64,000 bases of DNA from Eledone cirrhosa (taxonomy: Eukaryota), in NCBI GenBank assembly GCA_964016885.1, contig CAXHJY010001444.1:125777-189776 (forward strand), written 5' to 3'. Every line of letters starts with the position of its first letter. Within the stretch, counting starts at the first letter, position 1. This document shows, one piece after another, positions 55,869 to 64,000 of this stretch. Under the pieces are notes generated by a model. It saw only the letters and a program-made list of their open reading frames with translations, searched no databases and was not told where the DNA came from. The translations under genes and the position numbers were made by a program.

Positions 55869-55924
55869 AAATAAAATATTAAACAAATAATGAACAAACA
55901 ATTCCTTATATTAAACAAAAAAAG

Positions 55925-56079
55925 TTCACTATTTAACGATCGTTTCTAGGGCATATATGTGTTATAATTGGTATGCATATTTAACAGATCTATGTACAAA
56001 ATTATACAAAATTATACAAATTATCAAGATTAAATATACATACCTAACTCATATATACGCCGTCTTCAGAAATAATGAA
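55925..56079 (-). ncRNA. Second copy of the long-stem-II hammerhead fold, in the inverted arm
   Basis: Reverse complement of 62333-62487. Confidence 0.75.
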
Positions 56080-56849
56080 GTATATTTATTGATAATAACA
56101 ACAATTCAAAATATCAGTTCAAAATTGACCAATGAAAACACAAAGGGTTAAAAAGCAGTTTGGTGTGTGTATATACATGTAAAACCCTACACACATTTTA
56201 CAATAATGTGTGTATAATCTGTATGTGCATACTAAAAAGATGGATGCAAATAAAAAATTTCAAGGTTAATATCTCTGTAAGCTTAATGCGCTGATAAGAT
56301 ACGCAATGATACTTATAGAGTCAAGCATATAAATATATTTTTTTCATACTCACACATATCAGTATAATCACACATACATGTGCGTATATATATAAATATA
56401 CACGTAACCACGAGCACACAAACACACACACTCCCCCACTCACATTTATATATGTGGATATAAAATCATAAGCAAATAGAAATTAAGTCACTCACATAAA
56501 CACACTGGTACACACATTTCAAGATCAAGATACAGAAATTAGGTGGGAGGGGGGGGGAGGGGTCAGTATTAGACTGTCAGACCAGACAACCTTAATATAA
56601 ATGTATCTATAAATTATGAAAAATAAAAAAATAAAAACAATAAAATATAAATACATATAATATAATGTACATACGCATACAGATATACATACATATACAT
56701 ACATGTACGCGCACATCGAGATATCTATACATACATACATACACACATACCTATACTGTCATACACACACATACATTTACACGAACATACTCATACACAT
56801 ATAAAAAGATATAAATACGGACACACACGCGCGCAACACATACATACAT

Positions 56850-56900
<51 letters not shown>

Positions 56901-57013
56901 TATACACACACACACGTAGACTCATATATATATATACATACACATACATACATTTATACACAAACATATATATCCCACACTCATACCACCATAAAAACAC
57001 ATACAAACATCCA

Positions 57014-57065
<52 letters not shown>

Positions 57066-57283
57066 TCAACATACACACACGTACACACATATGCATATAT
57101 ACATACATATATACACACATACACATATATAAATCCACACACACACATAAAATACAGACATGCACATATATATATATATATATATATATATTTCATTACT
57201 CTTATATATACACACAGTATATATACATACACGACCTCACTTATACACATATACACATAAGTTATATTACAATAATAATAAAG

Positions 57284-57326
<43 letters not shown>

Positions 57327-57469
57327 TATACACACATATACACATATACATACACACACATACACATACATACATACATACACATACATACATACACCTA
57401 AATATAAACATATATAAATACATACATACGAATAAAGACATATATTCACACATAGACACCTATATACAC

Positions 57470-57503
<34 letters not shown>

Positions 57504-57529
57504 CTATATACACACACATACACATACAT

Positions 57530-57575
<46 letters not shown>

Positions 57576-57607
57576 GCACACACATACAGACACACATACA
57601 CACTCAC

Positions 57608-57645
<38 letters not shown>

Positions 57646-57861
57646 ATGTGAGTGTGCGCAAATACATATACATATATATACACACACACATACAAACACA
57701 CAACAAAACTTATACATATGCATACGCACACACACACACACATATATATCACATAGATACGAAGATAAACATATAAATAGAGAGACATATAAATATATAC
57801 AGAACCCATATACACATACATACAAACACGCATATACATATATATACATATATACACACAA

Positions 57862-60764: not shown

Positions 60765-60802
<38 letters not shown>

Positions 60803-60834
60803 GTGAGTGTGTATGTGTGTCTGTATGTGTGTGC

Positions 60835-60880
<46 letters not shown>

Positions 60881-60906
60881 ATGTATGTGTATGTGTGTGT
60901 ATATAG

Positions 60907-60940
<34 letters not shown>

Positions 60941-61083
60941 GTGTATATAGGTGTCTATGTGTGAATATATGTCTTTATTCGTATGTATGTATTTATATAT
61001 GTTTATATTTAGGTGTATGTATGTATGTGTATGTATGTATGTATGTGTATGTGTGTGTATGTATATGTGTATATGTGTGTATA

Positions 61084-61128
<45 letters not shown>

Positions 61129-61346
61129 CTTTATTATTATTGTAATATAACTTATGTGTATATGTGTATAAGTGAGGTCGTGTATGTATATATACTGTGT
61201 GTATATATAAGAGTAATGAAATATATATATATATATATATATATATGTGCATGTCTGTATTTTATGTGTGTGTGTGGATTTATATATGTGTATGTGTGTA
61301 TATATGTATGTATATATGCATATGTGTGTACGTGTGTGTATGTTGA

Positions 61347-61398
<52 letters not shown>

Positions 61399-61511
61399 TG
61401 GATGTTTGTATGTGTTTTTATGGTGGTATGAGTGTGGGATATATATGTTTGTGTATAAATGTATGTATGTGTATGTATATATATATATGAGTCTACGTGT
61501 GTGTGTGTATA

Positions 61512-61562
<51 letters not shown>

Positions 61563-62332
61563 ATGTATGTATGTGTTGCGCGCGTGTGTGTCCGTATTTA
61601 TATCTTTTTATATGTGTATGAGTATGTTCGTGTAAATGTATGTGTGTGTATGACAGTATAGGTATGTGTGTATGTATGTATGTATAGATATCTCGATGTG
61701 CGCGTACATGTATGTATATGTATGTATATCTGTATGCGTATGTACATTATATTATATGTATTTATATTTTATTGTTTTTATTTTTTTATTTTTCATAATT
61801 TATAGATACATTTATATTAAGGTTGTCTGGTCTGACAGTCTAATACTGACCCCTCCCCCCCCCTCCCACCTAATTTCTGTATCTTGATCTTGAAATGTGT
61901 GTACCAGTGTGTTTATGTGAGTGACTTAATTTCTATTTGCTTATGATTTTATATCCACATATATAAATGTGAGTGGGGGAGTGTGTGTGTTTGTGTGCTC
62001 GTGGTTACGTGTATATTTATATATATACGCACATGTATGTGTGATTATACTGATATGTGTGAGTATGAAAAAAATATATTTATATGCTTGACTCTATAAG
62101 TATCATTGCGTATCTTATCAGCGCATTAAGCTTACAGAGATATTAACCTTGAAATTTTTTATTTGCATCCATCTTTTTAGTATGCACATACAGATTATAC
62201 ACACATTATTGTAAAATGTGTGTAGGGTTTTACATGTATATACACACACCAAACTGCTTTTTAACCCTTTGTGTTTTCATTGGTCAATTTTGAACTGATA
62301 TTTTGAATTGTTGTTATTATCAATAAATATAC

Positions 62333-62487
62333 TTCATTATTTCTGAAGACGGCGTATATATGAGTTAGGTATGTATATTTAATCTTGATAATTTGTATAA
62401 TTTTGTATAATTTTGTACATAGATCTGTTAAATATGCATACCAATTATAACACATATATGCCCTAGAAACGATCGTTAAATAGTGAA
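62333..62487 (+). ncRNA. Type I hammerhead ribozyme fold with extended stem II in the PLE pseudo-LTR
   Basis: Stem I TTCATTATTT/AAATAGTGAA (10 bp); core CTGAAGA 62343-62349; stem II GGCGTATATATG/CACATATATGCC plus GGTATGTATATTTAA/TTAAATATGCATACC; then GAAAC-GATC-GTT with palindromic stem-loop III. Predicted cut after 62477. Confidence 0.75.
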
Positions 62488-62830
62488 CTTTTTTTGTTTA
62501 ATATAAGGAATTGTTTGTTCATTATTTGTTTAATATTTTATCTTGACTCTGTATACCATTTATCTTTCACCGAAATTGGATTTTCATTACATCTCTTCTT
62601 TCCATGATATCCGGAATACATTGAGTTCTTCATACGGATTGGACACTACCGTAAACTCTTGGTAGATTTATCTACATAATTTTGCTCCTATTTTCACGGA
62701 AATATTCGTATTTTTGTACTGTATGTGTGTATTAATTTTATATTTATGTATAAACATATATATATGTATGATTTTGTAAACCCATATACATTTAGTTGAG
62801 CTCTTTCAATTGTCCATCATCCATATCACA

Positions 62831-64000
62831 ATGGAAAAACAATATTTAGGAACCTCCTTAAAAAACATACCAATACCTTCTAAGGACGACTTCTTACTCC
62901 TTATGATTCAGAAAACTAATAATTTTATCAGAAGGGTTAGATGGAGAGCCTACCACTTTGATAGGAAATCTAAACAAGCAGATCGGAAATATATGTATGA
63001 TTTCAACACTTACAAGAATCCACCACACAACTTTTTACTTGAAGACTTCGAGAAAGACCTTTTTAATTTAATTAAACACCTAAAATTTAAAAAGTATAAA
63101 TCCGTCTTTCAAAAGGACCTTGATTCTACCCTATTGGACCTAAAAAAGTCTAAAAAAATCCATGTCCACTCGGACAAAACTGGTAACTTGTATCATATGG
63201 ATATTGAACATTATAATGAGTTCATATATAAAGAACTCAGAAAAAATTATAAAAAATCTAATAATGCGTCACTCACCAACATCAACAACAAAACACACAA
63301 CATAGTAAAAAAACTAAATATTGAAGATAGAACTGAACCTTTGGCATTGAGAGGCCCACACTTCAACCTGAAAGATCACAAATCTAACTTTAACTCTAAT
63401 CCTTCTATTAGACTTATATGTCCCTCCAAATCAGATATTGGAATAATTAGCAAAAAAATTTTAGATAGAGTCATCCCACAAATAAGAAAATACGTTATTT
63501 TACCACTCTGGGAAAACACCTCCCAGGTAATTAATTGGTTTAAAAATATTAGGTGTAAATCTTCTGCTTCTTTCCTACAGTTTGATATAGATAATTATTA
63601 TTCTTCTATATCACCCATACTCCTGAACAAAGCATTAATATTTGCTAAAAATAGATCTAGTTTAACTTCGGATGACATTAACATTATTACACATGCTAGA
63701 CAAACACTTATTGAATTTCAGAATGAATACTGGACCAGAAACACTTATAGTAATCTTTTTGATATTACTATGGGTTCAAGCGATTCTGCCCAAATTACTG
63801 ATCTTGTGGGCCTCTTTCTCCTTTTCAACATAAATGCCTCTTTTCCCCACCTCAAAGGTGGTTTATATCGTGATGACTGTCTTCTTCTTTCTAACAACCT
63901 TAGCCTTTCAGAAATAGAAAAAAACAAAAAGCATATTAGAACTTTCCTTAAAGACTATTATAATCTTAATATTACTTTTGAAAAAACAAGTAAAGTAGTA
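62831..64000 (+). CDS. Penelope-like element reverse transcriptase, N-terminal 390 codons, uninterrupted and running off the window (Hydra-clade-like)
   Basis: Manual translation from ATG 62831 gives MEKQYLGTSLKNIPIPSKDDFLLLMIQKTNNFIRRVRWRAYHF...SDKTGNLY...LKDHK...RLICPSKSDIG...FDIDNYYSSI (motif A)...FDITMGSSDSAQ (motif B')...GLYRDD (motif C). No stop codon up to 64000, which is why it is absent from the ORF track. Confidence 0.93.
   Translation, partial: MEKQYLGTSLKNIPIPSKDDFLLLMIQKTNNFIRRVRWRAYHFDRKSKQADRKYMYDFNTYKNPPHNFLLEDFEKDLFNLIKHLKFKKYKSVFQKDLDSTLLDLKKSKKIHVHSDKTGNLYHMDIEHYNEFIYKELRKNYKKSNNASLTNINNKTHNIVKKLNIEDRTEPLALRGPHFNLKDHKSNFNSNPSIRLICPSKSDIGIISKKILDRVIPQIRKYVILPLWENTSQVINWFKNIRCKSSASFLQFDIDNYYSSISPILLNKALIFAKNRSSLTSDDINIITHARQTLIEFQNEYWTRNTYSNLFDITMGSSDSAQITDLVGLFLLFNINASFPHLKGGLYRDDCLLLSNNLSLSEIEKNKKHIRTFLKDYYNLNITFEKTSKVV

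Follow-up and report, generated by a model that had tools for sequence, protein, structure and literature searches.

Paired 3′ ends and a possible circular RNA template in a recent Hydra-type Penelope-like retrotransposon of Eledone cirrhosa

Introduction

Which RNA is copied when a Penelope-like element (PLE) inserts as an inverted arm joined to a partial tandem repeat? The question is raised by a 64,000-nt stretch of the Eledone cirrhosa genome (assembly GCA_964016885.1, contig CAXHJY010001444.1, forward-strand positions 125,777 to 189,776; hereafter the window, numbered from 1), in which positions 55871 to 64000 hold such an insertion together with a hammerhead ribozyme. Craig et al. 2021 (PMC8557442) state that both the role of the hammerhead in PLEs and the way in which tandem and inverted PLE insertions originate are open. 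A circular template was proposed long ago by Cervera and de la Pena, 2014 (PMC4209133), and was not supported in vitro (Frangieh et al. 2024, PMC11167929). Comparison of the window copy with its relatives points to a recent two-armed insertion into a TA repeat, in which one RNA would have been copied from both cut ends and a circle would have served for the gene-bearing arms, a reading that we hold to be, on balance, probable.

Results

Layout of the insertion in the window

Alignment of the inverted arm with its plus-strand counterpart (55871-57860 against 60550-62541) covered 1,990 nt with 0 substitutions and one 2-nt gap, compared with 19-70 substitutions between the same arm stretch and other loci in 21 of 25 comparisons, the remaining four rows being shorter arms. 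The near-identity of the arms claimed in the preliminary description of this locus is thus borne out, as is a stop-free reverse transcriptase (RT) open reading frame (ORF), which remains open for 390 aa from the ATG at 62831 and has YRDD at residue 346. This ORF cannot be called intact, as had been done, because position 64000 is the end of the contig (C1471), so that the ORF of the window copy is not completable and the right end of the insertion is not seen. The endonuclease ORF described as cut at the inversion junction is indeed free of stops (57862-59040), opens at the junction and differs from intact copies by 0-19 aa, but it is not endonuclease alone, as it comprises residues 421-813 including the RT thumb. 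The same description recognised an inverted-plus-tandem PLE but overlooked that there are a hammerhead, a pair of fixed ends and a tail, and that the microsatellite-rich stretch is part of the element. The layout, a partial-tandem and inverted pseudo-long terminal repeat with a one-sided tail as in endonuclease-bearing (EN+) PLEs, is textbook for such elements, and taken alone it is ordinary. The element is also carried by the high-numbered contigs C114, C327, C1266, C1269 and C1471, in some cases within a few kb of the contig end, which suggests that it breaks the assembly there.

Two fixed 3′ ends and their pairing

Copies of the element end at one of two sites, a short site (62541) and a long site (62678), each of which sits 4-5 nt upstream of a bulged hairpin (Table 1); because hairpin 2 lies beyond the long end, terminal copies are without it. 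In the first 103.6 Mb of C1, 34 of the 46 short ends were accompanied, at no more than 20 kb, by a long end in divergent orientation (0.43 on average under the null), and the same stretch held one short-short and one long-long pair. The two opposite-strand arms were identical in 17 of 22 pairs and differed by one position in three, against a median of 8 between loci (pairs with 3 and 4 differences are neighbouring separate insertions), and the arms of one insertion have private variants in common, all of which points to a single source for both. The short-end arm is far longer than the long-end arm in L095 and the arms do not overlap in L060; as either arm may thus be the longer and some share no sequence, each arm appears to have been primed separately. 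Double priming at two sites, the short site at one of the insertion's ends and the long site at the other, is very probable on this evidence. The outer ends at 62848 or 62826 in L150 and L151 suggest a rare third priming zone near the start codon, and short duplicated motifs interspersed with TA, found on the 5′ side of single-armed copies (L070, L078 and L087), suggest RT slippage on the target.

A start site at 62336

Among 143 ribozyme-bearing arms (loci L050-L149), 67 begin at 62332-62343 and 31 exactly at 62336, and genome-wide 698 mini-palindromes (minis) stop at 62336 with varied joints. Symmetric junctions away from this hotspot were found in L093, L121 and L138, which also speaks for a single source of both arms. 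Single-armed copies (L082 and L087) likewise begin at 62336, so that palindrome collapse is no explanation for the start, and a structural block upstream of it, considered as a cause of the stops, was not evident. At 428 sites the letter before 62336 is a G in place of the element's own C; among the first 100 listed, by-eye counts gave a G:T ratio of 26:23 before 62336 and 7:87 before 62337 (p = 2e-9). An extra G is the mark of a copied cap, and the initiator (Inr) and the downstream promoter element (DPE) have consensus motifs with which the letters around the site can be compared (Table 1); the DPE-like letters are present in only 8 of 35 haplotypes. A literature search on cap-derived G found no paper linking the extra G to the cap. 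Taken together, the sharp start and the extra G make capped transcription from 62336 probable. A read-through copy with at most one difference exists for 51 of the 70 arms that start at this site, and the minis therefore look like by-products of the long family. No spliced genomic copy of the candidate leader intron (Table 1) was found, which fits either its retention or the absence of an intron; that the intron, by overlapping hairpin 2, could bar spliced mRNA as a template and so explain intron retention in Penelope is a rather unlikely idea.

Template of the ORF-bearing arms

With a capped linear RNA as template, ORF-bearing copies would be expected to begin at 62336. None that does so was found genome-wide, against 222 exact ORF-start sites; a start at 62336 is combined with passage of the long site at only two genomic sites, whose ends, at 62826 or 62848, lie before or just inside the ORF. 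Among local ORF starts, 18 of 24 reach the upstream ribozyme; internal repeats read through 62336 in 17 of 17 cases, and terminal repeats start there in 60 of 139. The hammerhead cut carries no indel in 138 read-through copies, and a jump of the RT across a break at the cut was rejected as these copies bear no scars of it. Nor is the cut a 5′ hotspot, since 0 of 6 ORF-start arms ending short of the ribozyme core start at 62478. In arms that comprise two to more than three units, 0-7 substitutions separate the sequences of one insertion and 29-558 those of different insertions, the former range excluding one 5,450-nt segment at C1:420 Mb that is a different, partial copy. A unit circle made and ligated by the hammerhead would account for the read-through and unit data, and we give it an even chance of being the template of the long arms.

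The hammerhead ribozyme

The type I hammerhead is predicted to cut after 62477 and has a fold z of -5.3. Across 35 ribozyme haplotypes the core and the palindromic stem III are invariant and 99% of cells are paired; an Rfam search returned only sub-threshold microsatellite matches and no hammerhead. Stem variation in the haplotype alignment is mostly A/G opposite U, which fits either G-U-tolerant selection or copied RNA editing. Two further descriptor matches lie in the window at 7243 and 10544 (plus strand), the latter with a 91-nt stem II region.

Protein and clade assignment

The complete ORF in other copies encodes 813 aa and, as in EN+ PLEs, joins a telomerase-related RT and a GIY-YIG endonuclease in a single frame. 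The top nine fold matches of a predicted model of the full-copy protein (pLDDT 83) were telomerase reverse transcriptases, and its Atlas neighbours were animal clusters, some with GIY-YIG; Pfam gave no match for the window proteins or the full-copy protein, and a PDB sequence search gave none. The endonuclease residues IVY..YIG, R, E and N are all present. Measured against the diagnostic motifs of the Hydra clade listed by Craig et al. 2021 (PMC8557442), the protein has a C-terminal endonuclease, no N-terminal CxC domain and no fingers insertion, RWR at residue 37 as in Hydra-1_Crog, with YDFNTYK replacing GxKF/Y (Hydra: RWK and non-conserved GxKF/Y), DKT at 115 in place of DKG, a CxCx5C linker from 673, and CxxC from 771 and CxH from 789 around the conserved E and N. 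CCHH is absent, there being no CxxC within the GIY-YIG core, which holds two widely spaced cysteines, the second not conserved in 35 homologues. By eye, the RT3-RT4 spacing agrees with Hydra-1_Obim, and the protein tracks Hydra-1_Obim and Hydra-1_Crog block by block. A hammerhead of predicted cleavage lies in the repeat and insertions are in (TA)n, as in Hydra; the unit of 6.05-6.9 kb departs from the "generally short (<3 kb)" length that is typical of the clade but does not define it. The traits of Penelope/Poseidon, Neptune, Nematis and Naiad (DKG or DKA with CCHH; N-terminal endonuclease for Naiad) were not found. The element is highly likely to be an autonomous Hydra-type Penelope-like retrotransposon, and the family is a structural variant of the known Hydra clade.

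Copy number, age and spacer of the family

Searches with the RT stretch gave 40 further best matches at 99-100% identity among 2,835 candidates. Of 20 complete ORF spans (13 of them drawn from loci picked for best RT match), 15 encode 813 aa and one encodes 808 aa; a further one is altered at its end, and the remaining three are broken. Over the RT part, 21 copies match the window at 96.4-99.7% identity, and in 19 of them synonymous changes exceed non-synonymous ones. Two proposals of the preliminary description fare well here: its Hydra-clade placement, a call that rests on motifs, agrees with the presence of every tested Hydra protein motif, and its view of a young family fits the many copies at 99-100%, the intact ORFs and the synonymous excess. 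These comparisons support a recent family of high copy number (thousands) that is potentially active.

The repeating unit of about 6.2 kb consists of leader, ORF, spacer and hammerhead. The spacer is 2.36-4.49 kb long (median 3.51 kb, n = 58), and shared probes were found in 26-59 of 60 spacers; being common to the copies, it identifies the microsatellite-rich arm as element sequence. A second Hydra-type family is represented on the minus strand at 48400-49711 by a fragment of 305 aa without stops (34% identity); its 3′ region measures about 400 nt and ends in TA, and near 48490 there is a stretch resembling a hammerhead. This short 3′ region indicates that the long spacer is family-specific. 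A third, more decayed Hydra-type endonuclease fragment (28% identity) lies on the plus strand at 21898-22311. Elsewhere in the window, a GC-rich stretch (51-55%) at 30844-33015 has minus-strand frames, which we take to resemble LINE reverse transcriptase.

Table 1 Features of the insertion, in window coordinates
Feature	Position	Strand	Remarks
(TA)n-rich array	51273..55870		host target flank, ~4.6 kb, period 2, ~2,300 copies; element stops in it at 55871
Inverted arm ending at short 3′ site	55871..57860	-	copy of 60550-62541; without tail
Hammerhead motif of inverted arm	55925..56079	-	mirror of 62333-62487; descriptor match at 56069
Head-to-head junction	57857..57861		57860/57861, 4-nt microhomology CACA
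5′-truncated ORF	57861..59043	+	residues 421-813: RT thumb, 97-aa N/K/T-rich insert, CxCx5C linker, GIY-YIG endonuclease, stop
Element-borne spacer	59044..62335	+	3,292 nt; 55% in alternating dinucleotide runs
Type I hammerhead (predicted)	62333..62487	+	stem I, CUGAAGA core, 116-nt stem II region, GAAA, palindromic stem III
Putative internal promoter	62333..62367	+	initiator-like TTCA(+1)TT, +1 at 62336; DPE-like AGTTA at +28 to +32
Short 3′ end site (putative RT start 1)	62541	+	2,033 exact genome matches running into TA
Tail, ending at long 3′ site 62678 (putative RT start 2)	62542..62678	+	137 nt; 4,011 exact matches running into TA
Bulged hairpin 1	62546-62626	+	inside the 137-nt tail; fold
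Bulged hairpin 2	62684..62802	+	fold; strands invariant in 33/33 internal copies
Candidate GT-AG leader intron	62721..62795	+	75 nt, overlaps hairpin 2; from sequence
ORF residues 1-390	62831..64000	+	N-terminal domain and RT core, cut by contig end

Discussion

The genomic copies suggest that short copies arise from linear RNA and that gene-bearing copies are likely to arise from an RNA ring. In the proposed sequence of events, Pol II would begin a capped RNA at 62336 and the GIY-YIG domain would nick both strands of (TA)n, whereupon copying would be primed at 62541 from one end and at 62678 from the other, in both cases a little upstream of a bulged hairpin. On linear RNA, copying primed in the leader would continue to the cap and yield palindromes of about 550 bp; alternatively, two tandem hammerheads would cut and the unit of about 6.2 kb would be ligated into a circle, which would be copied round past the start site to give long or multi-unit arms like that of the window copy. 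The two cDNA ends would finally be joined head to head via microhomology. The full form of this proposal, an autonomous protein-coding retrotransposon that replicates via a covalently closed 6-kb RNA circle, which its paired hammerheads would produce and on which two RTs would start at the twin hairpins of the same molecule, the capped linear RNA yielding only gene-less palindromes, is put forward tentatively, as falling somewhat short of probable.

Several observations weigh against the proposed sequence of events. Twelve of the 46 short ends have no exact partner, and some insertions are not two-armed: among 20 long ends without a partner that were fetched, nine had a variant short-end arm, eight looked single-armed and three were complex. 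In about half of the 26 cases with G, the other arm could have served as its template, and covariation in stem II is weak, with 1 pair altered on both sides across the 35 haplotypes. One insertion may contain units that differ from each other (by up to 7 substitutions and 23 gap events), two plus-strand units at C4 differ in one tail letter, and assembly polishing could make nearby repeats look more alike. In vitro, hammerhead mutants were without effect on insertion, the RNA copied was mainly uncleaved, and either start site was used on both strands (PMC11167929). The start site, the cleavage and the circle are, moreover, all read from DNA.

The main rival of the circle is homology-guided strand transfer of the retroviral kind, in which the cDNA extends as far as the capped 5′ end and is then transferred, by homology, to the 3′ repeat of that same linear RNA, the minis being strong-stop products of RNAs without a 3′ repeat, so that no circle is needed. 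Strand transfer would account for the seamless read-through, for the minis and for priming at the long site with hairpin 2 only in the leader, and it agrees with hammerhead-independent insertion in vitro (PMC11167929); we nonetheless judge it unlikely, because 62336 stops 60 of 139 first arrivals and 0 of 17 later ones, no ORF-bearing copy genome-wide starts at 62336, no read-through copy among the 100 listed has a cap-derived letter at 62335, and the hammerhead core is invariant. Linear transcripts of tandem loci, begun far upstream and copied into long arms as outlined for the Anolis element, are distinctly unlikely to be the source: multi-unit loci do exist and a multi-copy mRNA has been proposed (PMC11167929), but this route cannot add units, yet lineages of different unit length (6.05-6.9 kb) have their own arrays, and internal starts should leave the ORF-bearing copies from 62336 that are missing.

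Two further explanations concern the inverted arm. It could be a fold-back, in which a single cDNA, or an antisense template, is copied by self-priming (PMC3846280), with no second priming on RNA, for which the common symmetric palindromic junctions and the near-identity of the arms would speak. We consider this very unlikely, as short-end arms may exceed long-end arms, some arms do not overlap and minis have no tail in their short arm, so that neither arm can always be copied from the other; the extra G at the sense 5′ end also stands against it. That the window inversion is an assembly artefact is hardly credible even though the contig ends inside the element, for the arm stops exactly at the short site of the family, carries a private 2-nt indel and is joined by microhomology, and the same layout is typical of chromosome-scale loci and recurs genome-wide, as the pairing of short and long ends on C1 indicates.

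The layout, the tail, the two start sites and the ribozyme are already known from PLEs. The rule that pairs short with long ends, the cap-marked minis and the contrast between minis and ORF-bearing copies were not found in our searches of open-licence papers. The value of the family lies in making the circle question testable: it gives exact coordinates for the start site, the two priming sites and the circle junction, in thousands of recent copies with many intact ORFs, so that the question could be addressed directly in one experiment.

Among known systems, the element is closest to the Hydra clade (Hydra-1_Obim, Hydra-1_Crog and Hydra-2_Amil; PMC8557442), with which it has in common the domain order, the RWR, DKT, CxCx5C, CxxC and CxH motifs, the lack of CCHH, a type I hammerhead, a (TA)n target and an inverted 5′-truncated copy. 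It differs from the Hydra elements of that paper in its unit of about 6.2 kb (1.4-3.0 kb in 20 listed consensi), its microsatellite spacer of about 3.5 kb, the 116 nt between the core halves of its hammerhead (about 12-25 nt in six Hydra rows), its 813-aa protein with a 97-aa insert and its thousands of near-identical copies. The Poseidon element PAc of Anolis (PMC11167929) provides an in vitro precedent, since it likewise has two internal RT start sites bounding a tail, both strands are extended and an RNA signal downstream of the start sites is required. The tail of the present family is, however, 137 nt long and outside the ORF, compared with 30-40 nt in PAc, and its insertions use a different site at each end, as known here from genomic sequence alone.

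Penelope of Drosophila virilis (Schostak et al. 2008, PMC2377424) resembles the element in having an internal Inr/DPE-type promoter in the repeat, which is putative here, and a 75-nt leader intron, of which there is only a candidate here, and Adineta Penelope families (PMC3846280) resemble it in their long spacers and N-rich inserts; both belong to a different clade, and the spacer described here, rich in microsatellites, is common to the family instead of being DNA captured by single copies. Animal non-LTR retrozymes (PMC7761336; bioRxiv 10.64898/2026.07.22.740005) are also hammerhead-bounded units, thought to move as RNA circles via PLE enzymes, whereas the present element encodes its own enzyme and the circle proposed for it would measure about 6.2 kb instead of 150-300 nt.

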